Source: a virus
Lineage: Duplodnaviria > Heunggongvirae > Uroviricota > Caudoviricetes
Length of the DNA: 26,838 nt
Strand: one strand, 5' to 3'
IMG/VR virus record: IMGVR_UViG_2537562220_000008
In this document: positions 1,275-26,838 of the stretch, one piece after another
How positions within the stretch are numbered: the stretch's first letter is position 1
Layout: each line of letters starts with the position of its first letter
Translations under genes and position numbers: made by a program
Notes under the pieces: generated by a model
What the model saw: only the letters and a program-made list of their open reading frames with translations
What the model was told of the DNA's origin: nothing
Databases searched by the model: none

Positions 1275-1847
1275 TTACATTTCAGGTTGCGTTATGACAG
1301 TCCCAACAGGGTGATAGCGGTAGATCGTTGACAGTCCAATATCATAGATAATTGCCAGCCGCTTTCTGTCATACCCTTTCTGGAGCAATCTTGCGATCTG
1401 CTCATGCTGCTCCTTCGTCAGTTTCGGGCGACGTCCTCCAACTCTTCCTTGTGCTCGCGCAGCAGCCAGTCCTGCCAGCGTGCGCTCAACTATCAGTTCA
1501 CGCTCCATTTCTGCCAGTGCACCCATCATATGAAAAAAGAACCTTCCCATCGGAGTGCTGGTATCGATTGAATCCGTCAGACTGCGAAAATTGACACCTT
1601 TTGCGCGTAGCTCTTCTGTGAGAGCAATGAGGTGTTTCATTCTTCTACCCAACCGATCCAGCTTCCAGACCACCAATGTATCCCCTCTTTTAAGGCACTT
1701 TAAAGCGCGTTTCAGGCCTGGTCGTTCCGACTTGGTTCCGCTCATTTTGTCCTCAAAAATCTGTTCACATCCTGCGCACATTAATGCATTGCGTTGCAAA
1801 TCTATGTTTTGGTCATTTGTTGACACACGTATGTAGCCAATCAGCAT
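1275..1847 (-). CDS. Serine DNA invertase, Gin/Pin/Hin/Cin family
   Basis: 190-aa protein starting [34 protein letters not shown]... with the resolvase/invertase N-terminal catalytic motif (YIRVSTNDQ) and a C-terminal helix-turn-helix region; ATG at 1847 preceded by AAGGGAG. The ORF-track start at 1976 is an upstream in-frame artefact. Confidence 0.9.
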
Positions 1848-3051: not shown

Positions 3052-4317
3052 TCACGCCGCCCTCACGATATAGTTAAACGCGATATTGCGGGGGCGGGTT
3101 ATGTTAAAGAATGCTCCGTTTAATTCGGCTTTTGCGCGACTGTTTGTTCCACCCAGAATTACGTACCACAAATAATCGCTACGGTAATTCCCCGCAAACA
3201 CCTTATCGCCGCCATAGTCAATATTATTTCCGTTACTCATGTACGAGATATCAAGCGAAGAATCGTTATCGTCATGACCGCCGACCAGTGTACCTTTCTG
3301 CCATGAAAGCAACTTACGCCCCTCGTCAATCTTGCGCCCGTCGTCCCATCCACGGATAAACTCACCGCGTAAATCGGGAAGACGGAGGGTCGGGTAGACT
3401 CTGGCCAGAACAGGATATTGTTCTTTTGTAAAGGCGCGCCCGTCGCACTTTAACCAGCCTGCTGGCGGTGTGGCGGTGGGCCATGGAACCGGTACACCAA
3501 CAGGCAATGCAGAGCCTTCCCCCAAACCAAGGTAATTGAGGACATCTTTTATACTGCCCTTAGCGATAATAGCGCGACCAATAGCTGTAAGGGTTGCCAG
3601 CGCTGCGCGGTCTGCTCCGGTAAAATAAGGCAACCGATCTGCTGCAGTGGCAAGTCCTGCCAGAGCAGTGAGCGTGGCATCTGCCGGTTGTTTTCCGTTT
3701 GCCAGATCGTATGCAGCCTTGACCGCTTTCGGTGTGGCGGCCAGTATTTCAGACGTGCTGTTGATGGCACTGCTCAGTTGTACGGTGCCTTTTGCCGTCA
3801 GCGAGGCAGCAGGCACTCCCGTTATCTGACTCCACGGGTGAGTGTGGCTGACGGGCGCCTTGCCGGCTGCAAGGTCGTATGCAGCCTTGACCGCCTTCGG
3901 CGTGGCAGCCTCAGTTTCTGATTGACTGTCCGTGGCGCTGCTCAGTTGTACGGTGCCTTTTGCCGTCAGTGAAGCCGCAGGCACTCCCGTTATCTGACTC
4001 CACGGGTGAGTGTGGCTGGCAGGCGCCTTGCCGGCTGCCAGGTCGTATGCAGCCTTGACCGCTTTTGGTGTGGCGGCCAGCGTTTCAGAGGTGCTGTTGG
4101 TGGCACTGCTCAGTTGGGTGAACCCCTTAGCTGTCAGTGTCGCGTCCGGGTGGTTACGGGAACGTACGTGTTCAGCCAGTGACTGTGCGGCTTCCTCCGT
4201 TTTCTTCTTCAGCCATTTCGTCCTGTTTGCCAGTTGCCGGGGGCTCGATTTGATATCCCGTCTGCACCACCCAGAACCGGATCTGATGTCTCCAGTTGAT
4301 AGATATTTTCTTCCCAC
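3052..4317 (-). CDS. Tail fibre protein (P2 gpH / lambda Stf-like), currently expressed variant
   Basis: Contains tandem ...LTAKGTVQLSSATDSQSETEAATPKAVKAAYDLAAGK... repeats, a ...DATLTALAGLATAADRLPYFTG... segment and a collar-like C-terminal region ending NIAFNYIVRAA. Start is uncertain: GTG at 4317 has no Shine-Dalgarno sequence; an ATG at 4330 in another frame is a possible alternative. Confidence 0.85.
   Translation of the reverse strand: MGRKYLSTGDIRSGSGWCRRDIKSSPRQLANRTKWLKKKTEEAAQSLAEHVRSRNHPDATLTAKGFTQLSSATNSTSETLAATPKAVKAAYDLAAGKAPASHTHPWSQITGVPAASLTAKGTVQLSSATDSQSETEAATPKAVKAAYDLAAGKAPVSHTHPWSQITGVPAASLTAKGTVQLSSAINSTSEILAATPKAVKAAYDLANGKQPADATLTALAGLATAADRLPYFTGADRAALATLTAIGRAIIAKGSIKDVLNYLGLGEGSALPVGVPVPWPTATPPAGWLKCDGRAFTKEQYPVLARVYPTLRLPDLRGEFIRGWDDGRKIDEGRKLLSWQKGTLVGGHDDNDSSLDISYMSNGNNIDYGGDKVFAGNYRSDYLWYVILGGTNSRAKAELNGAFFNITRPRNIAFNYIVRAA
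3331..3530. repeat. Inverted repeat arm B (about 200 bp), partner of 1914-2113
   Basis: Reverse-complement identity with 1914-2113, as read directly from the sequence. Confidence 0.85.
3517..3542. promoter_or_regulatory. Candidate gix/hix-like inversion crossover site (right)
   Basis: TTCCCCCAAACC-AA-GGTAATTGAGGA; inner half-site identical to the left site, outer half-site different, as expected for the two ends of an invertible segment. Confidence 0.5.
3640..4150. repeat. 168-bp tandem repeats inside the tail fibre gene (about 3 copies, 56-aa units)
   Basis: The motif tacggtgccttttgccgtcag recurs at 3781 and 3949 (168 bp apart); the protein shows three successive ...TAKG(F/T)(T/V)QLSSA...AATPKAVKAAYDLA... 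units. Confidence 0.8.
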
Positions 4318-6020: not shown

Positions 6021-6358
6021 AGCAGCTCCTGAGTCCGGGTCTGTCCGTCTGAGCCTTTCCAGCTCACCCGGAGCGTAAGATGTTCGCCGTCGACGGCGGG
6101 GTTAACTGACATAAGCTGGCAGCGGGGCTCCCAGCGCCGGATGGCATCGACGGATTCGCGCACCACATGCGGAATGGCCCGGTCTACAGGCCAGTCGATA
6201 TAAAGATGCAGATTGCTGCCGAACTCCGGGCGATGCGGGTCGCTGCCGCGGGGAGTCCGCAGGATAATTTGAATCGCCTGCCGGATATCATCCAGCCCCC
6301 GGACAATTTCGCCGGGAGCCTGCAGGGCTGGTTGCCAGAATACTGAGGTTGTTTTCAT
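6011..6358 (-). CDS. Baseplate protein, P2 gpW / T4 gp25-like
   Basis: 115-aa ORF (same length as P2 gpW) in the expected position. Confidence 0.6.
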   Translation of the reverse strand: MKTTSVFWQPALQAPGEIVRGLDDIRQAIQIILRTPRGSDPHRPEFGSNLHLYIDWPVDRAIPHVVRESVDAIRRWEPRCQLMSVNPAVDGEHLTLRVSWKGSDGQTRTQELLWR

Positions 6359-6412
6359 GGGGGCAGTATTGCCCCCGTGCGGGAACGCTGATATTAAAGG
6401 CGTTTAAAAAGC

Positions 6413-8360: not shown

Positions 8361-9244
8361 CACACACTCCTCGTCAGTATTCTGGCGGCCATTGCACTTA
8401 ATCCCGGAGACATGCGGTTGAATGCTGTTCCGACGGCGTTAAGCTGCCCGGAAACGGTATCCAGAGCACCTGCAATATTTCTTTTGTCCACACCACTCAG
8501 CGCAGACTGTGCCTGCTGTACATACGTGGCTGCTTCGCTGGCTGTTCTGGCCAGACTGATGGCATCGGGCATGGATTCAGAGAGTGCGTTAAACGCCGGA
8601 ACACTTTTCCCCAGAGCCCCGGAGATATTACCCAGTCCGCTCATCAGCCCCGGCACACGGGTCAGTGCGACAACGGGGTTATCCTTCATTTTCTGTGTCA
8701 CCCGAACGGCGCTGATAGTGGTCTGGAGTACAGACTGCGCCTGTTTCGCATAGTTGACGCCGTTGCGGATGAACTGCGCCACCCCGGAAGGTGAAGGAAT
8801 GGCACCGGAGACCGCCCCGACACCCGGGAGCTTCGTGCGTATTGCCGGTGGTTGCAGAGGATTTTTCGGGTCACCGGTGTATTCCCGGAGAGACACGGTG
8901 GCACTGACAGCCAGCACGTTGCCGATACTGTCAGTCTGCTCGCTGGTTGCAGTCACATCGGTAATCACGAACCAGCCGCGATAGTCACCGTTGCCGAAGA
9001 CCAGCGCCAGTGCCTGATGGGCTTTCATGGCTGTTCGCAGTCTCGCCAGCTCCACATCGGGTACACAATAATGCTGATGGAAAACCAGAGTTATCTGGAT
9101 TTCGTCCAGCCTGTCGCCGACGAACTGCAGGCCAGGCTTACCCCCGATGCGGGCATGCTCCGCATAATCGACGCCGAACGTGGCCTCGAAGCCGTCCCAG
9201 TAGGTAATCAGCTCAAACTCAATATCACCCAGTACGGCAAACAT
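8360..9244 (-). CDS. Tail protein, P2 gpU-like / Mu N (DNA circularisation)-like
   Basis: 294-aa ORF immediately downstream of the tape measure (ATGA overlap); N-terminal region (...GKPGLQFVGDRLDEIQITLVF...) resembles gpU-type tail proteins as I recall them. Confidence 0.5.
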   Translation of the reverse strand: MFAVLGDIEFELITYWDGFEATFGVDYAEHARIGGKPGLQFVGDRLDEIQITLVFHQHYCVPDVELARLRTAMKAHQALALVFGNGDYRGWFVITDVTATSEQTDSIGNVLAVSATVSLREYTGDPKNPLQPPAIRTKLPGVGAVSGAIPSPSGVAQFIRNGVNYAKQAQSVLQTTISAVRVTQKMKDNPVVALTRVPGLMSGLGNISGALGKSVPAFNALSESMPDAISLARTASEAATYVQQAQSALSGVDKRNIAGALDTVSGQLNAVGTAFNRMSPGLSAMAARILTRSV

Positions 9245-12200
9245 CAGCGGTACTCCTTACGTTGTTTCTGAGCAAGCAGACGCTCCAGCATTTTTTCCAG
9301 CTCATGCAGACTCATATTCAGGGCACCAGTCAGTCCTGCAGGCGCTGTGGTTTCCCTGCCATTGAGGAAAAACTGAGGATTAAAGCTGACCTGGATACCA
9401 CCAGACGTTCCACCGCCGGTTGCAGCTGCACCACGGCCTGAATATCCGGCAGCCAGGATTTCAGGCGAGGGGATACGGGGAACATCCGGTGTCATCTCAT
9501 TTGCCAGACGTTGCCCTGGTAAAATCGATGCCCGGGTGGAGAGCGGAATAGCGGGCATGGAAGACAAACTATTGATTACGGCTCCGATCGCATTTTTAGC
9601 AGACGACATAAACCCATTGATATCGGGCAACGGCATACTGAAGCGAACACCTGAAGTGTTATCCCGTATTTCTGGCCCCTGAATGCTCACGGGCATTTTG
9701 GGGAGCAGTTCACTGGCCATTCGCTGCCCGGCCAGAGCTGCAAGCGGAGTGGTCCGCTGCAGGCCAATGGCGGCCCCCTGCGCGATATTGTCACCAAAGC
9801 CCATAAACACGCGGCTCGGCGAATGAATGCCCAGCTTTTCGCTGAACCAGCCACTGATGCTGTCGCCCATTCCGGTTACACTGGATTTGAGCGACTCCCA
9901 TTTGTTTTTGATACCGTTAATCAGACCATCGACAAGATGGCCACCGAAGTCGGTAAACTTTGCCGGCAGATCAACACCAAGATATTTCAGCGCAGCTGCA
10001 AAGGCTTTATAGAGCAGACCTGCCGGCGACCAGTTAATCAGCAGCTTACCAGTTCCCGCGATACCGCCGTTAAAGGCTTCCTGAATGTCAGCCCAGCACT
10101 GTTTAAACCAGCTACTGATGCTGTCACCCATTCCGGTTACACTGGATTTGAGCGACCCCCATTTGTTTTTGATACCGTTAATCAGACCGTCGATAAGATG
10201 GCCACCGAAGTCGGTGAACTTTGCCGGCAGAGTAACGCCGAAATATTTCAGCGCAGCCGCAAAGGCTTTATAGAGCAGGCCTGCCGGCGACCAGTTAATC
10301 AGCAACTTACCAGTTCCCACAATGCCGCCGTTAAAGGCTTCCTGAATGTCAGCCCAGCGCTGTTTAAACCAGCTACTGATGCTGTCACCCATTCCGGTTA
10401 CACTGGATTTGAGCGACCCCCATTTGCTTTTGATACCGTTAATCAGACCGTCGATAAGATGGCCACCGAAGTCGGTGAACTTTGCCGGCAGAGCAACGCC
10501 GAAATATTTCAGCGCAGCCGCAAAGGCTTTATAGAGCAGGCCTGCCGGCGACCAGTTAATCAGCAACTTACCAGTTCCCACAATGCCGCCGTTAAAGGCT
10601 TCCTGAATGTCAGCCCAGCGCTGTTTAAACCAACCACTGACAGCCCCCCAGTTGCGGTAGATAAGGTAAGCTGCTGCCGCGACAGCGGTGATAACGAGAC
10701 CGATGGGATTCATCATCAGCGCTCGCCCAATCCAGAGAACGGCACGTGCAGCGCTCATAAAACCGCGAACGAGGCTGCCCGCCAGAACTTTGCTGAGTTT
10801 CAGTCCTCCGCTGGTCAGTCGGCTGAATCCAGTGACAAGCCAGCGTAATTTGCCACCTTCTCCGAGTGCGGTAGTCAGTCGATGCCAGTTGGTCCGGAGT
10901 AAAACAGCATTTTTCCAGACACTTACAAAGGGGGAAATAAGGAGATTCAGCCCCAGTTTGAGACCAACAGTCGCTATCTTAATCGCAAGGAGCGCACTGA
11001 TGAGCTTAAAAGCCCCACTGACAAATTGCGGGTGAGTCGCTACCCAGTGTTTTGCCCCCTGAATGAGTGGAAGCAGTTCCTGAGTCAAAGAAATAAAAGA
11101 TGGAGCTAATTGATCGCCCAGCGTAATTGCCAGATCGCGACTGCTGACCATAAGTGTTTTAGTGGCTTCAAGGGGAGATTTCAGTCGCTGATCGTAAGCA
11201 CTGGCAAGCAAATCGTTATCCGCAGCCCTGAGAGCACCGGCACGGATCTCTCGATATCTGTCCATGTTGGCCAGCATCGGGCGGATAAATGCCATGACCT
11301 GCATATCCGCGAACATATCACCCAGACCAAAGTTTTTCGCCAGAGCCTGAAGTGCCTCATCTCTTGCCGTATCATTCTTTATTTTCATGGCGGATTTGAA
11401 GCCGGCCAGCGCTTCGGGGCTTTTGGCATTGAGGTAACGTTCTATAACACTCAACATCCCTTCAATCGGAGAGATCCCCGCAGCCTTATAACTCGCAATA
11501 GATCCCTGCAAATCAATACCCAGATCAGCAAACTGTTTCTGAGTATCGCGGGCAAAAATTTTGGTAAGAAAGTTTTTAAAATTATTGGCTGCTTCGTCGG
11601 TGGAACCTGCACCGATTTTTGCTATCTGGAGACTGGCCCCGATTTCAGCAACAGCCTCTTTTCCACTGGCAATACCCGCCATCATTGGGGCCAGGGACTG
11701 CATCCACTTGACCTGATCCGGGATTTCAAATGACCCCTGGTCACCGGCATAAGCCATAATATTCTGAACGGCACCAAAATCTCTGGCCGCACCTTTCAGG
11801 GAGTTTTGCCAGACTGCGGCCACTTTTGCCCAGTCCTGAGCAGACGTGCGTGTTGCCGTTGCCGCGCGGGCAATATCCGGCATCAGAAAACCGATATCTG
11901 ACACATTATCAATATTGTCGCTGATGAGTGAACCCACCGCCTCCTGCAGCTCATCCTGATACTGATTGTATTTAAGCGCCCAGCCTTTTATCTGTCCGGC
12001 AAGTGCATCCCGCGTTTTATTGTCATATTTTGCGGTGATCGACATATCAATCATTTTGTCCTGAAAAGACATGGACTGCTGAACGGCAGGGGAAACCGTA
12101 TGATAAACAGTCTGTGCCATGCCATACGCTTCAATCCCCTGACCATACAGCGCCATGCGGTTAGCTTTCAGCGCATCACTGGTAGCGGATGCCGCTGACA

Positions 12201-12456
12201 GACGGCGCTGCTGGCGCTCAATTTGCTCCATGGTGCGGCTTACCCGCAGCAGCTCGCTGTTGAGATGCTGCATCCGGGAAGAACCCAGTTGACCATAACG
12301 TTCTGTTGCACGGGTTAAAGCGTTCTGACGTTCCTGCAGGCGGCGTGAGGTATCGCTCAGGGAATCAAGCGCACGGCGGGGACCGCTCATTGCAGAACGG
12401 AATGTGCTGCCAATCATCCCGCCGATAACAACGCCGACTGAAAACTGTCCCGACAT
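9244..12456 (-). CDS. Tail tape measure protein
   Basis: 1070-aa ORF, the largest in the cluster, helix-rich, downstream of the tail chaperone gene and containing internal tandem repeats; ATG at 12456 preceded by GGAGG. Confidence 0.85.
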   Translation of the reverse strand: MSGQFSVGVVIGGMIGSTFRSAMSGPRRALDSLSDTSRRLQERQNALTRATERYGQLGSSRMQHLNSELLRVSRTMEQIERQQRRLSAASATSDALKANRMALYGQGIEAYGMAQTVYHTVSPAVQQSMSFQDKMIDMSITAKYDNKTRDALAGQIKGWALKYNQYQDELQEAVGSLISDNIDNVSDIGFLMPDIARAATATRTSAQDWAKVAAVWQNSLKGAARDFGAVQNIMAYAGDQGSFEIPDQVKWMQSLAPMMAGIASGKEAVAEIGASLQIAKIGAGSTDEAANNFKNFLTKIFARDTQKQFADLGIDLQGSIASYKAAGISPIEGMLSVIERYLNAKSPEALAGFKSAMKIKNDTARDEALQALAKNFGLGDMFADMQVMAFIRPMLANMDRYREIRAGALRAADNDLLASAYDQRLKSPLEATKTLMVSSRDLAITLGDQLAPSFISLTQELLPLIQGAKHWVATHPQFVSGAFKLISALLAIKIATVGLKLGLNLLISPFVSVWKNAVLLRTNWHRLTTALGEGGKLRWLVTGFSRLTSGGLKLSKVLAGSLVRGFMSAARAVLWIGRALMMNPIGLVITAVAAAAYLIYRNWGAVSGWFKQRWADIQEAFNGGIVGTGKLLINWSPAGLLYKAFAAALKYFGVALPAKFTDFGGHLIDGLINGIKSKWGSLKSSVTGMGDSISSWFKQRWADIQEAFNGGIVGTGKLLINWSPAGLLYKAFAAALKYFGVTLPAKFTDFGGHLIDGLINGIKNKWGSLKSSVTGMGDSISSWFKQCWADIQEAFNGGIAGTGKLLINWSPAGLLYKAFAAALKYLGVDLPAKFTDFGGHLVDGLINGIKNKWESLKSSVTGMGDSISGWFSEKLGIHSPSRVFMGFGDNIAQGAAIGLQRTTPLAALAGQRMASELLPKMPVSIQGPEIRDNTSGVRFSMPLPDINGFMSSAKNAIGAVINSLSSMPAIPLSTRASILPGQRLANEMTPDVPRIPSPEILAAGYSGRGAAATGGGTSGGIQVSFNPQFFLNGRETTAPAGLTGALNMSLHELEKMLERLLAQKQRKEYR
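9853..10635. repeat. Three tandem 261-bp (87-aa) repeats inside the tape measure gene
   Basis: Protein shows three near-identical units SWFKQRWADIQEAFNGGIVGTGKLLINWSPAGLLYKAFAAALKYFGV.LPAKFTDFGGHLIDGLINGIK.KWGSLKSSVTGMGDSIS; the three near-identical antisense ORFs at 9827, 10085 and 10346 are a by-product. Confidence 0.85.
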
Positions 12457-12640: not shown

Positions 12641-12949
12641 CATCTCGCCAGCAGCCCCTGCGCCTGCGTCAGCGCCCTGGTTGCTCTCACCCATCCCCGT
12701 GATGAGCTGAAATCGTTTCTGTAACTGCAGGTAATCAGCCAGATCCATATTGTCGAGATCCTCCGGGAGAAGACCAGTACTGCGGGCAATCAGCGGTTCG
12801 TCCCAGTCTGCCGGGTTTTTGCTGATTTTGCGCACCTGCTTCAGGTCTTTTACCGTCAGGCGTTTCAGTTCAACCAGCTCAATTCTGGTGCCTGCAGCAG
12901 TGGTGAAGGGATAAGACAATTTAAAAGTATCGGATGGGGTCTGTGACAT
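12614..12949 (-). CDS. Tail assembly chaperone (P2 gpE-like)
   Basis: 111-aa ORF directly upstream of the tape measure with an overlapping downstream frame; ATG at 12949 preceded by AGGAG. Confidence 0.7.
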   Translation of the reverse strand: MSQTPSDTFKLSYPFTTAAGTRIELVELKRLTVKDLKQVRKISKNPADWDEPLIARSTGLLPEDLDNMDLADYLQLQKRFQLITGMGESNQGADAGAGAAGEMVPVSAGGD

Positions 12950-13024
12950 GATTGTGCTCCTGTGTAAGTTCAGGGCAGTATGTCGGGAGAAGCGCGTGAC
13001 GGATATTAAAGGAGATTAAGAAGA

Positions 13025-13040
13025 AGGGGCCGGAGCCCCT
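13025..13040 (-). terminator. Candidate intrinsic terminator after the small ORF
   Basis: AGGGGC-CGGA-GCCCCT hairpin (GC-rich stem) immediately after the stop at 13047, followed on the minus strand by UCUUCUUAAUCUCC. Confidence 0.45.
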
Positions 13041-17747: not shown

Positions 17748-18863
17748 TTACAGGCAGCGTGCGACAGCAGCCTCATAGCTGATGCCTTCTTTTTTGGACA
17801 GGGCCACTGCTTTCTGATGCAGGGCCAGACGCTCAGGATCGGCTTCCGCAAACTCTGCCACATCCACCTTCACCGTGTCGCCGACACGCTCTTTTGTGGC
17901 CTGTTCGGCGAAATTCATCACCGGCTCCCCGTCGGAGAGCAATGAACGAAAGGCGGTGGCCAGCGGTGTGCGGCTTTCCCCCTCAGCAAACTCCACCGGC
18001 TTGTCGCCACCGGCGACGGCATCCAGCAGGGCAACCACCACGGAGGAGGCGCGGGGAGCCAGACGGCCCTCTGCGACCAGTTTTTCTGCAAAGGCCACAT
18101 TGTCCTTATGCAGTTGCTCCTGTCTGACCTGTGCATCACGCGCATCGCGATCAGCAGCCTGCTGCTTCAGGCGGCGGTTCTCCTCCTGAAGGGCTTCAAT
18201 CTCTTCTTTTGTCATCGATGATTCCTCGTTACTTGCGGAAGACGGCCCCGGGCCTGTCTCACTGAATTGTGCACCTGCTGCATCCTGCGACAGTGTGTCG
18301 CGGTACGCCTCTTCGCGCAGACTGTTGAGCTGCCATTCCGGCAGGACTTTTTCTGCCTCGTCCAGACTGAAGCGGGCGATCAGAAAATCGCGCAGCTTTC
18401 CCCACAGGGAGGCATTCGTGATGGCCTGCCAGTCGGCGAACTCCACCACACCTTCTTCCTGCTCACTGAAGGACACCTGTTTCAGCCCCTTGACGGAAGG
18501 TGGCTGTGCCCCGAGAAAGCCCACATGGCGAAGGTAGAGCACGCCGGGCTTCGGATTGGACGGTGAATCCGGGAGGTAGAAAGAGGCGGACACTTTTTTG
18601 AATCGTCCGTCGGTGACCATCTCAGCAAACTGCGGGTCCAGCTGGGCAGGCTCTGCCATCAGATCGACGCCGCTGAGCGACAGGGCTTTCACCCAGCCCC
18701 ACGCCGGGTCTTCCGTTCTGGGATGACCAATCACGAGTGGTGCTTCATGGACGGACGGGTCATAGGCTTTCACGCAGGCGGCAAGATCGTCTGGCGTGAA
18801 CGGCAGTTTTTTGCCGTGCATATCGGTATGAGTACCGGCTTTAAAAATGTGAATGGCTGACAT
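17748..18863 (-). CDS. Head protease / scaffold protein (Mu I-like)
   Basis: 371-aa protein with an N-terminal protease-like region and a charged coiled-coil-like region (...EEIEALQEENRRLKQQAADRDARDAQVRQEQL...), directly upstream of the capsid gene. Confidence 0.75.
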   Translation of the reverse strand: MSAIHIFKAGTHTDMHGKKLPFTPDDLAACVKAYDPSVHEAPLVIGHPRTEDPAWGWVKALSLSGVDLMAEPAQLDPQFAEMVTDGRFKKVSASFYLPDSPSNPKPGVLYLRHVGFLGAQPPSVKGLKQVSFSEQEEGVVEFADWQAITNASLWGKLRDFLIARFSLDEAEKVLPEWQLNSLREEAYRDTLSQDAAGAQFSETGPGPSSASNEESSMTKEEIEALQEENRRLKQQAADRDARDAQVRQEQLHKDNVAFAEKLVAEGRLAPRASSVVVALLDAVAGGDKPVEFAEGESRTPLATAFRSLLSDGEPVMNFAEQATKERVGDTVKVDVAEFAEADPERLALHQKAVALSKKEGISYEAAVARCL

Positions 18864-18887
18864 TTTGCTGTCCCGCGTTATGTTGTC

Positions 18888-18926
18888 GGAGACAGTTTGT
18901 GAGAAATGCAGGCCCGGCGATTTTAA
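18888..18926 (-). promoter_or_regulatory. Bipartite motif TTAAAATC-N23-CTGTCTCC upstream of gene I (candidate late promoter, copy 1)
   Basis: Minus strand reads TTAAAATCgccgggCCTGcATTTctcacaaaCTGTCTCC, ending 24 nt before the I start codon; the same two boxes at the same 23-nt spacing occur upstream of the holin-like gene. Confidence 0.5.
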
Positions 18927-18999
18927 TCTGCTTTAGAAAACATCAGGGGAGAAGGACAGGGAAAGCAATGCGGTGAACCGGAGGCGGTTATAAAACAGA

Positions 19000-19031
19000 G
19001 GCTGTAAAGCCTTTATAAAGGTAATACAGCC
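19000..19031. promoter_or_regulatory. 32-bp dyad-symmetric element in the G-I intergenic region
   Basis: GGCTGTAAAGCCTTTATAAAGGTAATACAGCC: outer 7-bp arms are perfect inverted repeats and the core CCTTTATAAAGG is a perfect 12-bp palindrome. Confidence 0.4.
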
Positions 19032-19077
19032 CCTCATTCGCTGGCAATGATAAATCACCCGCCTGAAGAGAGAAAAC

Positions 19078-19536
19078 TCAGCGACGGGCCGCTGATTCAA
19101 GATGGCGGACAATGGTATCGAGGATGGGGATTACCACTTCAAGCTGTAGTTCTCCATCCCCCGTCACCGGCAGGAACGGGCGGGCCGGAAGTTCAACAGA
19201 CTCATTACGCCCCGTTTTACCCCCGAACTGGTGAATGGCACCGTAAACAACGTTGGTCCCCACAACAGCCTGCCGGTCGTCATGGTCGGTTGATACTGAC
19301 CCCATCAGACGCCCGGTATCCTGCAGTGTCTGCCCGTCACGTTCTTCCGCTGCCAGCGAGGGCATCCACCCCGGACGCCCCTCATCAAGAAAGTTAAACT
19401 GTGTTTCCGCCAGCAGGGTTCCGGCGATTTTGCGCATCGCGGGCTCCAGGTCTGTGGCAGCAAGATCCAGCGCACGGAGGCTCCGGCGCAGGGACTTATC
19501 GTTAATGGTGATACTGACCAGGTTATCGGAAGCCAT
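19078..19536 (-). CDS. Virion morphogenesis protein (Mu G-like)
   Basis: 152-aa protein (...FNFLDEGRPGWMPSLAAEERDGQTLQDTGRLMGSV...) directly downstream of the F-like gene; ATG at 19536 preceded by GAGAGGA. Confidence 0.7.
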   Translation of the reverse strand: MASDNLVSITINDKSLRRSLRALDLAATDLEPAMRKIAGTLLAETQFNFLDEGRPGWMPSLAAEERDGQTLQDTGRLMGSVSTDHDDRQAVVGTNVVYGAIHQFGGKTGRNESVELPARPFLPVTGDGELQLEVVIPILDTIVRHLESAARR

Positions 19537-25984: not shown

Positions 25985-26335
25985 TTAAAGCCCCATCGCA
26001 ACAGCCAGGCAGACCGCTGCAACAATCAGTGCACGGCGGATTAACGCAGCAGAAAACACCAGGTGAAGGCCGGTCTGTACCGGGAAACGCCCTTCAGCCA
26101 TCAGCCTGTCGTCATGTTTCAGGTACTGACCGGGACGGGCTTTGGGGAAGAGCGAACGGTAAAGCCAGTAACCCAGCACTGCTGCCAGCGTGATGAGTGC
26201 CAGCTTGTAGATCACAACAGGCAGCTGCTGTGGTGAGACCAGAGCGATGGTGCCCAGCAACAGCACTGAGGTCAGCAGCCAGCCGCTGAGGCGAGGTTTT
26301 TTAACAGGGGGAATGAATTTTTTCAGGTTTTTCAT
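25985..26335 (-). CDS. Holin-like small membrane protein (3 predicted transmembrane helices)
   Basis: 116-aa protein from the ATG at 26335 (AAGGAG 6 nt upstream); hydrophobic segments GWLLTSVLLLGTIALV, VVIYKLALITLAAVLGYWLY and LIVAAVCLAVAMGL; stop is 2 nt before the endolysin start. Confidence 0.55.
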   Translation of the reverse strand: MKNLKKFIPPVKKPRLSGWLLTSVLLLGTIALVSPQQLPVVIYKLALITLAAVLGYWLYRSLFPKARPGQYLKHDDRLMAEGRFPVQTGLHLVFSAALIRRALIVAAVCLAVAMGL

Positions 26336-26338
26336 GTG

Positions 26339-26361
26339 TGTCTCCTTATCTGGTGGAGACA
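26339..26361 (-). other. Hairpin overlapping the Shine-Dalgarno sequence of the holin-like gene
   Basis: mRNA would read UGUCUCC-ACCAGAUAA-GGAGACA (7-bp perfect stem, 9-nt loop); the 3' arm contains the GGAG of the ribosome-binding site. Confidence 0.4.
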
Positions 26362-26393
26362 GCATCACAAATACAGGGCGCGAAGGATTTTAA
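26355..26393 (-). promoter_or_regulatory. Bipartite motif TTAAAATC-N23-CTGTCTCC upstream of the holin-like gene (candidate late promoter, copy 2)
   Basis: Minus strand reads TTAAAATCcttcgcgcCCTGtATTTgtgatgCTGTCTCC, ending 19 nt before the ATG; same boxes and spacing as the copy upstream of gene I. Confidence 0.5.
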
Positions 26394-26434
26394 AGCGCGT
26401 TAAGAGAGCCGGGGATACGGGATGTGCAGGATAA

Positions 26435-26838
<404 letters not shown>

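Follow-up and report, generated by a model that had tools for sequence, protein, structure and literature searches.

The window (the whole stretch of DNA that was analysed, 26,838 nucleotides) belongs to a BcepMu-type transposable prophage; its treatment as Mu in the original prediction was not borne out. The prophage is 99.9% identical to phage PhiKM and was found in 638 of 5426 complete E. coli genomes (~12%), and its family also occurs in Klebsiella, Salmonella, Pseudocitrobacter and Burkholderia. The intact prophage is a 36.9-kb element contained in a 44-kb locus; in the genome that carries the window it is interrupted by an IS21-family element, 90 bp upstream of the box of P_hol, the predicted holin promoter. 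No description of the promoters of this prophage family was found in the literature searched. The late genes around the gap between G and I lie on the minus strand, with the following features, P_I being the predicted promoter of gene I.

19536..19078, minus strand: gene G, virion morphogenesis protein of 152 aa from the list of open reading frames (Pfam Phage_tail_S, E = 4e-23).
19095..19078, minus strand: hairpin at the G stop, TCAGCGGCCCGTCGCTGA overlapping the G stop codon, then GTTTTCTCTC; 7 pairs, 4 of them G-C, a 4-nt loop and a T-rich tail (terminator scan).
19034..18997, minus strand: dyad hairpin, with a 10-bp outer stem GAGGGGCUGU/ACAGCCUCU(+1), the inner palindrome CCTTTATAAAGG and a 4-bp inner stem.
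19019..19004, minus strand: 16-mer core TTTATAAAGGCTTTAC within the dyad, a candidate sequence-specific cis site.
18937..18922, minus strand: predicted Mor box of P_I (TCTAA-AGCAGA-TTAAA), with 5-bp inverted repeats on either side of a 6-bp spacer.
18899..18894, minus strand: -10-like hexamer CAAACT of P_I, with no -35 hexamer.
18895..18888, minus strand: CTGTCTCC, complementary to the I ribosome-binding region GGGACAG (18874..18868) and paired with it in the fold.
~18887..18886, minus strand: predicted transcription start of the I operon, placed by a box centre at -43.5 as in Mu Pm.
18863..17748, minus strand: gene I, head protease/scaffold homologue of 371 aa from the list of open reading frames.

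Gene G, annotated as the Mup31/G equivalent in PhiKM, is the final gene of the holin-to-G late operon, and gene I, whose product is 49% identical to BcepMu gp32, the 'Mu I equivalent', opens the following late operon. The 214-bp gap predicted between them (18864-19077) was found, with the G end at 19078 and the I start at 18863. The accompanying claim that the other late junctions are tight was essentially right: W is preceded by a gap of 54 bp and the tail-assembly gene by one of 97 bp, the only other real ones, and each of the two carries a predicted promoter of the same kind as P_I. Public records hold no annotation in the G-I gap, except for a 41-aa ORF called in the KP12 record alone. A G-I gap of 200-280 bp is retained in BcepMu, phiE255 and the Chromohalobacter and Stenotrophomonas phages, and alignments with ~80% identical relatives showed conserved blocks (the box; the -10 through the ribosome-binding site; the dyad) between diverged spacers. 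A small protein or a structured non-coding RNA from the gap appears most improbable. Besides the ORF of the KP12 record, a 59-aa TTG ORF (19112..18933) covers part of the gap, but it begins within G in a different frame and has no ribosome-binding site, and the gap length in relatives varies by 9, 10 and 13 nt, with the central part diverged. The small ORF was rejected on its start inside G, its lack of a ribosome-binding site and these non-triplet length differences. A known RNA family was likewise rejected, as an Rfam search of the gap gave no match at E <= 1, and the fold of the whole gap is only modestly stable (z = -2.2), which also speaks against a structured RNA.

The original prediction had read a bipartite motif, TTAAAATC-N23-CTGTCTCC, as the mark of late promoters. 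The motif is exact at 18926..18888 on the minus strand, ending 24 nt before the I ATG, and a second exact copy with identical spacing lies at 26393..26355, ending 19 nt before the holin ATG (26335). It was matched 0 times in 100 dinucleotide-preserving shuffles (0 expected by chance), and no further copy was found in the window, even with 2 mismatches allowed. The core of the promoter reading was supported, but the bipartite motif itself is not the functional unit. Judged from the sequence, TTAAAA is only the downstream, promoter-proximal half of a predicted 16-bp dyad box reaching 11 bp further upstream, the half overlapped by TTAAAATC (18926..18919) at P_I, and CTGTCTCC corresponds to the final 2 nt (CT) of the putative -10 hexamer together with the C-rich stretch up to the predicted start. 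Relatives do not keep the T of TTAAAATC and have TTAAAAGC, TTAACAGC or TTAAAAGT instead. The predicted promoters before the tail-assembly gene and W (P_tail and P_W) have no CTGTCTCC, so the bipartite motif could not have found them.

A start about 25 nt earlier was also considered, with TTAAAATC itself as the -10 (TAAAAT, 5/6 match) and a 5'-UTR hairpin between CTGTCTCC and the Shine-Dalgarno sequence needing a translational activator, like Mu Com on mom. TAAAAT is a near-consensus -10 in both window copies and folding predicts a hairpin between CTGTCTCC and the ribosome-binding site, but this arrangement is highly improbable: the critical last T is not kept before I in relatives, which carry the three forms given above or TTAAGAGA, the block runs on upstream as a dyad of the same form as the Mu Mor box, and a hexamer with better-conserved A2 and T6 lies at fixed spacing downstream of TAAAAT. 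The annotation of the prophage listed no Com-like gene. TAAAAT was rejected as a -10 on its final T being G, or the hexamer differing, in most relatives.

The elements of P_I were then compared with those of the Mu middle promoter Pm, whose Mor box occupies -51 to -36, with its centre at -43.5, and which has no -35 (PMC4390567, PMC4287176). The Mor box consists of two 5-bp inverted repeats with a G/C-rich hexamer spacer (PMC4390567). The 16-bp box of Mu, AGTAA-AGCCGG-TTAAT, and the TCTAA-AGCAGA-TTAAA of P_I share the TAA...TTA half-sites and the 6-bp spacer, which is half G/C at P_I and more G/C-rich at P_hol, P_tail and P_W. The box-to-(-10) distance is the same as in Pm (TAAAG-ccgg-TTAAT-N22-TATCCT), both promoters are without a -35, and a T-rich stretch stands immediately upstream of the box, at the place where alpha-CTD binds at Pm. 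A sigma-70 scan of the coding strand showed no -35/-10 pair, and the -10 hexamers are weak, CAAACT matching TATAAT at 3 of 6 positions; their ending in CT with a C-rich stretch behind it sets them apart from that of Pm. The predicted P_I box is conserved in all relatives down to 43% I-protein identity, as well as in BcepMu and phiE255, so that its presence in related phages, on which the original prediction depended, extends as far as a Burkholderia phage (BcepMu).

Four activator-dependent late promoters were predicted from these elements, before the holin gene, I, the tail-assembly gene and W, and they are probably the late promoters of the phage. Those other than P_I are the following.

26404..26353, minus strand: P_hol, with the Mor box at 26404..26389 (TAACG-cgct-TTAAAA), the predicted start at 26354/26353 and the holin ATG at 26335.
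13039..12969, minus strand: P_tail, with the Mor box TAATC-tcct-TTAATA, the -10 CATACT (12982..12977), the predicted start at ~12970 and the tail-assembly ATG at 12949.
6408..6356, minus strand: P_W, with the Mor box TAAAC-gcct-TTAATA, the -10 AATACT (6370..6365), then GCCCCC; the W ATG at 6358 is the predicted +1.

P_hol has an extended -10, TGTGATGCT, with its hexamer at 26366..26361 (GATGCT with TGn), and P_tail, conserved in KP12 and the related loci L007 and L008, has a clear terminator, GGGGCTCCGGCCCC + TTCTTCTT (13039..13018), before its box. The box pattern is TAAnS-N4(GC-rich)-TTAA, followed at a distance of exactly 23 nt from TTAA by a hexamer that reads nAnnCT or TATTGT (motif positions 28-33 in every promoter instance), and this consensus is valid in 15 promoter instances from 6 lineages, A2 and T6 of the hexamer being always kept. 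The composite pattern, which was partly refined on the same data later used for its count, had 4 matches in the window versus 0.01 expected, all on the coding strand and in the four late-region gaps, and the 44-kb locus with the intact prophage gave no match beyond these four. A fifth box-like site (window 1702, in the invertase gene) was not counted, as it has no -10-like hexamer (GGAAGC). The strict box pattern was not found in the Chromohalobacter and Stenotrophomonas phages, despite their long G-I gap. TAAAGccgaTTAAAAgacc occurs exactly twice in BcepMu, before the holin and before the I gene, and before I in phiE255; the V-W gap of BcepMu reads TTTAATATCC...CAACAT-GGCCGC-ATG. This geometry places the predicted +1 exactly on the W ATG here and on the ATGs of both W and I in BcepMu and phiE255, and the W mRNA is predicted to be leaderless.

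Comparative and literature evidence supported the idea that these are activator-dependent late promoters analogous to those of Mu, as a prediction. The likeness holds for position and logic: the sites correspond to the places of Mu P_I, Plys, PP and Pmom (the G-I gap; upstream of lysis genes), and the C-dependent late promoters of Mu, also four in number, have a dyad box centred at -43.5 and a -10 with no -35. Mu P_I has the same CAAACT hexamer and a hairpin adjoining the I ribosome-binding site (PMC2582627). The likeness does not extend to the box, which matches the Mor-dependent middle promoter Pm and not the C-dependent late promoters, whose boxes differ in sequence (e.g. TTAT-GCCCCA-ATAA at Pmom); Mor and C do not cross-activate (PMC4287176). 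The set also differs from that of Mu in having tail promoters before W and the tail-assembly gene and not before P, and no mom-type promoter was found in the phage.

One Mor/C-family activator gene is present in the intact prophage (L005 40794-41183; Pfam Mor 1.3e-43), outside the window; as in Mu, it stands next to gemA, where the early operon ends. Over the aligned parts the encoded protein shares 30% identity with Mu Mor and 37% with Mu C. BcepMu gp01 is likewise annotated as a Mor/C-family activator. The middle operon of Mu is transcribed from Pm and yields C, which in turn activates the late promoters of Mu, whereas here the Pm-type boxes stand directly on the four predicted late promoters. 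Since no second Mor/C paralogue was found in the intact prophage and the late promoters carry Pm-type boxes, the cascade would have two tiers instead of three.

The dyad announced by the original prediction was present as an inverted repeat with arms at 18997-19018 and 19013-19034, spanning 38 nt, and the U-rich tract placed after it on the minus strand is GUUUUAUAA (18996..18988). Its fold has a centroid of -19.6 kcal/mol, and the 71-nt stretch 19050..18980 that contains it gave z = -2.6 versus shuffles of the same stretch. A role as terminator or regulator site remains viable. The hairpin is directly followed by the U-run, and from its sequence the dyad is probably an intrinsic terminator or attenuator of the holin-to-G operon. 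The terminator scan observed 2 terminator-like sites in the region versus 0.6 expected; the hairpin at the G stop is kept in relatives, but its sequence is also coding-constrained. In the KP12 subgroup the stem of the dyad is kept, two G-U pairs having become G-C, with a poor U-tract, CGCUUUGC, after it. Subgroup B is without the 5' arm (the outer stem partner); directly upstream it forms another GC-rich hairpin, with at least 1 compensatory change, and BcepMu and phiE255 form CCCGUAAAG/CUUUACGGG + UUUGGUU, with changes that preserve G-U. A GC-rich stem and a T-rich run are retained at the dyad position in every lineage; the outer stem partner and the U-tract of the dyad itself vary between subgroups. 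Mu, like BcepMu, has a long hairpin and a T-run at the equivalent place, between G and P_I (ACGGGATT...AATCCCG+TTTTAT in Mu, GGGGCTGTA...TACAGCC+TCTGTTTTAT here), and Zha, Zhao and Howe (1994) reportedly described the Mu hairpin as the terminator of the lys transcript.

The core of the dyad is conserved beyond this. The 16-mer is identical in Burkholderia phage BcepMu, with G and I proteins only 44-49% identical, and the longest k-mer shared by chance in 500 shuffles was 11. It is single-copy in each genome, invariably within the G-I gap, and a scan of viral contigs for the 16-mer + GG found it in context in BcepMu-type contigs only; the remaining matches were rejected as chance occurrences in AT-rich coding DNA. 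This identity exceeds what a terminator or a hairpin alone needs. The core may be a protein-binding site, instead of or besides a terminator, either an auxiliary low-affinity site for the Mor-family activator or a site for some other conserved DNA-binding protein, of the phage or of the host. We regard this as unlikely on balance, although several observations are in its favour. The 16-mer is the same in E. coli and Burkholderia phages while the surrounding stems turn over, and it has the Mor-box half-site TAAAG both ways (CTTTA.TAAAG.G.CTTTA). In L008, from Salmonella diarizonae, the palindrome is absent and a full Mor-type box (TCTAAACcgttTTAAAC) stands at the same place, and the gap of Mu itself contains TTAAA-CCGGTA-TTTAA, with Mor/C-box geometry; Mor/C proteins bind as tetramers, according to a preprint. 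On the other hand, the right half (TACAG) matches the box poorly, a 1-nt deletion makes the spacing of the half-sites unequal in subgroups A and B, and the stem and T-rich run retained in every lineage are what a terminator predicts.

The position of the gap brings in a further possibility, that its size is mainly due to a genome-centre cis site for replicative transposition, a counterpart of the strong gyrase site (SGS) of Mu including the dyad core, which would be compatible with the promoter. This we find distinctly unlikely. A Mu-type SGS is characterised by strong binding and cleavage by gyrase, by helically phased bending signals in its right arm and by a need for it in efficient replicative transposition. 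The Mu record annotates a gyrase cut site 20 bp past the G stop, within a 196-bp G-I gap, and in both phages this gap lies less than ~500 bp from the genome midpoint: the distance to the midpoint is ~480 bp for the dyad in the intact prophage of 36.9 kb and 478 bp for the SGS in Mu. The BcepMu gap lies ~375 bp from the BcepMu midpoint, and the maintained gap length in the phages named above and the single-copy, BcepMu-identical 16-mer point the same way. For 10-11-bp A/T periodicity the KP12-type gap outranks every other 110-bp segment of its 20-kb locus, by a metric that ranks the Mu SGS in the top 0.3-1.4% of Mu, but the window's gap is only in the top 1-5% and that of BcepMu is unremarkable. 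An A/T phase-correlation proxy, which recovers the Mu SGS only imperfectly, as the fourth-best peak in Mu, gave z = 3.0 here (Mu SGS 3.5), with 43 positions scoring higher; its half-template versions perform worse on Mu, and a naive PWM from the 133-bp gyrase consensus was dropped after it failed validation on Mu. There is no sequence similarity to the Mu SGS, and the central position may merely follow from the conserved module order.

Gyrase sites are degenerate, and gyrase binding does not predict a 16-mer conserved across hosts, which here reaches as far as Burkholderia phages. Such a 16-mer is, to our knowledge, not a known property of SGSs. The 16-mer or palindrome at the midpoint of BcepMu-type genomes could act in cis from the centre, through its specific sequence, in replicative transposition or in the domain organisation of the prophage, with a function like that of the Mu SGS, a proposal to which we give quite a low probability; a defined conserved sequence would then be recognised, possibly by a Mor tetramer or another phage protein, and not the degenerate, shape-based preference of gyrase. 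Central sites tried as replacements of the Mu SGS failed, only that of the close relative Sp18 having worked, according to a review (PMC10052514).

The remaining element of the gap is the complementarity between CTGTCTCC and the I ribosome-binding site. The pairing is real and exceeds background only weakly. If functional, it would act on transcripts that read through from G or, toward the holin, from beyond the prophage; these would fold back and hide the ribosome-binding site, leaving promoter-initiated mRNAs translatable, as in IS10. The 5' arm lies upstream of the predicted start, so only read-through transcripts could hide the site. This resembles IS10/Tn10, for which Davis, Simons and Kleckner (1985) are said to have described a fold-back inhibition of read-through transcripts, in that the complement of the ribosome-binding site stands upstream of the element's own start and only externally initiated transcripts could sequester the site; it differs in that the complementarity here is short (6-9 bp) and weakly above background, with starts placed by prediction.

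We consider such a function possible rather than probable. Arm/ribosome-binding-site pairs of different sequence are present at the holin (TGTCTCC/GGAGACA), I (CTGTCTC/GGGACAG) and tail (TGCCCTG/CAGG(A)GCA) promoters, at the tail and I promoters of L008 (CTCG(G)TCTG/CAGACGAG and ACTCCCCGTT/AACGGGAGT) and at the BcepMu holin (CTACCCGTA/TACGGGAG), and every natural variant in relatives preserves the pairing through G-U. Mu P_I has CTGCTCA...TGAGCAG adjoining its ribosome-binding site. The complementarity is present at every SD-led promoter, with per-promoter p of 0.02-0.8 for cognate versus non-cognate pairs; every cognate pair ranks towards the better end of the non-cognate controls (combined p by the Fisher method = 0.026, and 0.012 in a narrower post-hoc test). 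Taken singly, the window's own promoters reach weak significance (p = 0.34 and 0.12 for P_I, 0.20 and 0.10 for P_hol and 0.62 and 0.22 for P_tail in two tests), and a duplex test with the full 41-nt promoter arm was not significant for them. C-rich promoter DNA generically pairs with a purine-rich ribosome-binding site, 37 of 49 background regions containing GGAG, GAGG or AGGA. At the leaderless P_W the C-rich stretch recurs (GCCCCC) where there is no ribosome-binding site to hide, so that C-richness may be a property of the promoter. The argument also depends on predicted start sites.

Taken as a whole, the G-I gap is likely a boundary between two late transcription units, made of terminator-like hairpin(s) and an activator-dependent late promoter of the Mor type. 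One or two hairpins, at the G stop and at the 38-nt dyad with GUUUUAUAA, would end the holin-to-G operon. After a diverged spacer, P_I would act as a sigma-70 promoter without a -35, dependent on the single Mor/C-family activator. We infer that this protein binds the 16-bp box, centred ~43.5 bp upstream of the start as Mor at Pm, and recruits RNA polymerase to the weak -10, with transcription starting at ~18886. The same type of promoter would drive the holin, the tail-assembly/tape-measure genes and W, one Mor-type activator from the end of the early operon firing four late promoters directly.

The gap is most likely a largely ordinary one with a known promoter type, the exception being its strongly conserved 16-base core. 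If the prediction holds, the complete late regulon of the phage consists of four promoters and one Mor-type activator, the BcepMu-type cascade is shorter than that of Mu, with Pm-type boxes directly on the late operons, and some gene starts would be corrected, e.g. that of BcepMu gp32 and of the leaderless W. The predicted promoters are precise targets for reporters and for prophage-induction studies. The centrally placed 16-mer, conserved across hosts, and the complement of the ribosome-binding sites that is embedded in the promoters could bear on the genome organisation of transposable phages and on the insulation of lethal late genes from outside transcription.

Genes G and I, late genes named after their Mu equivalents, were separated by 214 bp, as originally noted; this gap is unannotated, and the bipartite motif TTAAAATC-N23-CTGTCTCC did recur with identical spacing before the holin gene:

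19536..19078, minus strand, gene G
18863..17748, minus strand, gene I
18926..18888, minus strand, bipartite motif copy 1, exact, 24 nt before the I ATG
26393..26355, minus strand, bipartite motif copy 2, exact, 19 nt before the holin ATG at 26335

No further copy was found in the window with up to two mismatches allowed; corresponding box sites, at the promoter positions, are present in Klebsiella phage KP12, in the prophage loci L007, L008 and L009, and in BcepMu and phiE255. Shuffled sequence gave 0 matches to the motif, and no Rfam family matched. The phage itself is not Mu. By sequence it belongs to the BcepMu-type transposable prophages: identity over the region is 99.9% with Escherichia phage PhiKM (genus Bcepmuvirus) and about 80% with KP12 and with phage Phi06_2974 B. 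Of 5426 complete E. coli genomes, 638 carry it, and the copy in E. coli 4/1-1 is intact (ends at 4295 and 41242 of locus L005). In this copy, one strand carries the invertase and tail fibre, tail, head and lysis genes, and the other the regulators and the early operon, whose last genes are gemA and one gene of the Mor family (Pfam Mor, 1.3e-43), the single such gene. Its product shares 30% identity with Mu Mor and 37% with Mu C over the aligned parts, and no paralogue was found in the prophage.

We used the I protein to collect relatives among bacterial genomes and viral contigs, to which we added BcepMu, phiE255 and two phages at a greater distance. Among the relatives of about 80% identity, conserved blocks alternate with diverged spacers over the G-I gap. 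TTAAAATC, which contains TAAAAT, was rejected as a -10 element because relatives read TTAAAAGC, TTAACAGC, TTAAAAGT or TTAAGAGA before I. The conserved block reaches further upstream as TAAnS-N4-TTAAAA, with TAA...TTA half-sites six bases apart, and Pm, the Mor-dependent middle promoter of Mu, has the same box and spacing (TAAAG-ccgg-TTAAT-N22-TATCCT). The Mor site consists of a pair of 5-bp inverted repeats around a G/C-rich hexamer spacer, lies from -51 to -36 (centre -43.5) and replaces the -35 element; the box that C binds at Plys, PI, PP and Pmom is related to it but distinct, and the two activators do not cross-activate (PMC4390567, PMC2582627, PMC4287176). With the Pm geometry transferred, P_I, the predicted promoter before I, would have its box at 18937..18922, its -10 at 18899..18894 and its start at about 18886, from which CTGTCTCC would correspond to the final two -10 bases and a C-rich stretch ahead of the predicted start. 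The hexamer at motif positions 28-33 (CAAACT, CAGACT, GACACT, TATTGT, GATGCT, CATGCT, CAAGAT or GATGAT) always keeps the key -10 bases A2 and T6. With these anatomical corrections, the Mor box, the -10 at Pm spacing and the relatives support the proposed activator-dependent late promoters, and support placing the G-I gap promoter among the known Mor/C-dependent ones; for all promoters here, we infer activator binding, start sites and termination.

A relaxed box occurred five times on the coding strand of the window. One lies in each of the four real gaps of the late region, always with an nAnnCT hexamer at positions 28-33:

box starting at 26402, minus strand, P_hol (predicted), -10 GATGCT, before the holin gene
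box starting at 18935, minus strand, P_I (predicted), -10 CAAACT, before I
box starting at 13018, minus strand, P_tail (predicted), -10 CATACT, before the tail-assembly gene
box starting at 6406, minus strand, P_W (predicted), -10 AATACT, before W

The fifth, a Mor-box-like palindrome TAAAGtgccTTAAAA (1689-1702, minus strand), lies inside the invertase gene without a -10-like hexamer at promoter spacing. The composite pattern matched exactly these four sites in the window (0.01 expected) and no other in the 44-kb locus with the intact prophage; it was partly refined on the same data, although P_tail and P_W were found by the box alone and their hexamers seen afterwards. TAAAGccgaTTAAAAgacc occurs exactly twice in BcepMu, before the holin and I genes, and before I in phiE255. 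Together with the sites in KP12, L007, L008 and L009 and the position of the W ATG, these copies give independent support to the four predicted promoters. P_tail is directly preceded by a clear terminator (GGGGCTCCGGCCCC and TTCTTCTT), so the terminator-then-Mor-box arrangement, likewise found at Mu Pm, recurs. The P_hol box is nearly palindromic and has CAGGAT (26427-26432; region 26389-26466) at exactly positions 28-33 on the plus strand, for which reason it might drive both the holin gene and a divergent 242-aa gene; the upstream gene next to P_hol differs in many relatives.

The W ATG falls exactly on the predicted +1 of P_W (6356-6408), as do the ATGs of W and I in BcepMu (30770-30825 and 18813-18865) and of I, as annotated, in phiE255. 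This coincidence supports the inferred start position and would imply leaderless mRNAs for W here and for W and I in BcepMu. For BcepMu gp32, the I equivalent, the annotated start (18850) coincides in part with the predicted -10 (GATGAT) and was probably set 12 nt too far upstream, unlike that of the phiE255 annotation, which takes the downstream ATG for I.

CTGTCTCC is also complementary to the ribosome-binding site (RBS) region at both motif copies, and the other promoters have different arm/RBS pairs, with pairing kept through G-U in all natural variants. The predicted start comes after the arm, so only transcripts reading through would fold back, resembling IS10 fold-back inhibition. We consider such a role rather unlikely: the combined significance over six distinct promoters (Fisher's p = 0.026; 0.012 in a narrower post-hoc test) speaks for it, whereas p values against non-cognate RBS regions range from 0.02 to 0.8 per promoter (0.34 for P_I of the window) and P_W, whose leaderless mRNA would offer no RBS to be hidden, shares the C-rich stretch.

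The dyad noted in the G-I gap was confirmed (19034..18997). On the coding strand it folds as a hairpin with a 10-bp outer and a 4-bp inner stem, followed by GUUUUAUAA; the centroid is at -19.6 kcal/mol, and the 71-nt stretch around the dyad has z = -2.6. A further terminator-like hairpin overlaps the stop codon of G. The hairpin and U-run would fit a terminator, and analogous hairpins with T-runs are present in Mu (ACGGGATT...AATCCCG-TTTTAT) and in BcepMu and phiE255 (CCCGTAAAG...CTTTACGGG-TTTGGTT); three observations complicate this reading. The KP12 subgroup has a poor U-run. In subgroup B (L007, L042-L048), the 5' arm is absent, another GC-rich hairpin lies just upstream and at least one compensatory change was seen. 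The core 16-mer TTTATAAAGGCTTTAC, single-copy in every genome, is identical in BcepMu, though the G and I proteins are just 44-49% identical, and the longest shared k-mer in 500 shuffles was 11. As the stems turn over around this invariant core, it is probably read in a sequence-specific manner. The core includes the TAAAG half-site of the Mor box, and L008 (Salmonella diarizonae) has a full Mor-type box in its place. The Mu gap carries TTAAA-CCGGTA-TTTAA in Mor/C-box geometry (L070 17910-17935) within the right arm of the strong gyrase site (SGS) and the terminator hairpin; in the gaps of a Chromohalobacter phage (L079 8690-8740) and L008, this place is taken by two or three repeats of the TTTTAAAC type, spaced about 11 bp. 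Such A/T-rich repeats thus recur in the G-proximal half of the G-I gap across Mu-like phages.

The gap may hold a counterpart of the Mu SGS, though this is unlikely. In the Mu record, gyrase cuts 20 bp past G within a 196-bp G-I gap, and the SGS lies 478 bp from the Mu midpoint; the dyad lies about 480 bp from that of the intact prophage. A naive gyrase proxy failed validation on Mu, and a phase-correlation proxy, giving z = 3.0 at the gap here, ranked the SGS only as fourth-best peak in Mu. By a periodicity metric, the SGS was in the top 0.3-1.4% of Mu, the gap here in the top 1-5% and the BcepMu gap unremarkable, whereas no position in its locus scored above the KP12-type gap. The KS10 paper reports that similarity revealed no such site (PMC2628397).

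The prophage of the window is interrupted by an IS21-family element, whose IstB-like gene (Pfam IstB_IS21, 6e-42) reaches the window edge with its last 93 codons (26489-26838). Colinearity with the intact prophage ends at 26488, after 23 nt of the divergent 242-aa gene (ATG 26466, plus strand); this point lies about 90 bp upstream of the P_hol box. The tail-fibre segment 1914-3096 is on the opposite strand to that of strain 4/1-1 (98.4% identity) and, adjoining the recombinase (invertase) gene, resembles an invertible host-range switch of the Mu G-segment kind, seen here in its alternative orientation. The tape-measure gene (9244-12456) codes for 1070 aa, against 983 aa in 4/1-1, the 261-bp difference sitting in a stretch of internal repeats (secondary BLAST matches, 92% identity, offset 261 bp). 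A Mu-like prophage end (TGAAGAATGATGCGCC...GCGATAAATG repeats) was placed at about 1190, and the flank 1-1189 has no match to the aroA-ycaL site occupied in 4/1-1, which points to insertion elsewhere in the chromosome, in keeping with a transposable phage. No 5-bp target duplication was seen at the assigned ends in 4/1-1. The 35-kb sequence L003 (OM835952.1, 'Klebsiella phage KP12 clone KP12_2'), filed under Vequintavirinae, is colinear with the window and represents a transposable prophage of the BcepMu type, probably co-assembled and not part of a Vequintavirinae genome.

We found no description of promoters of BcepMu-type phages in the literature searched. The novelty is modest and would lie in Pm-type boxes placed directly on late operons, in a single activator and in a leaderless W.
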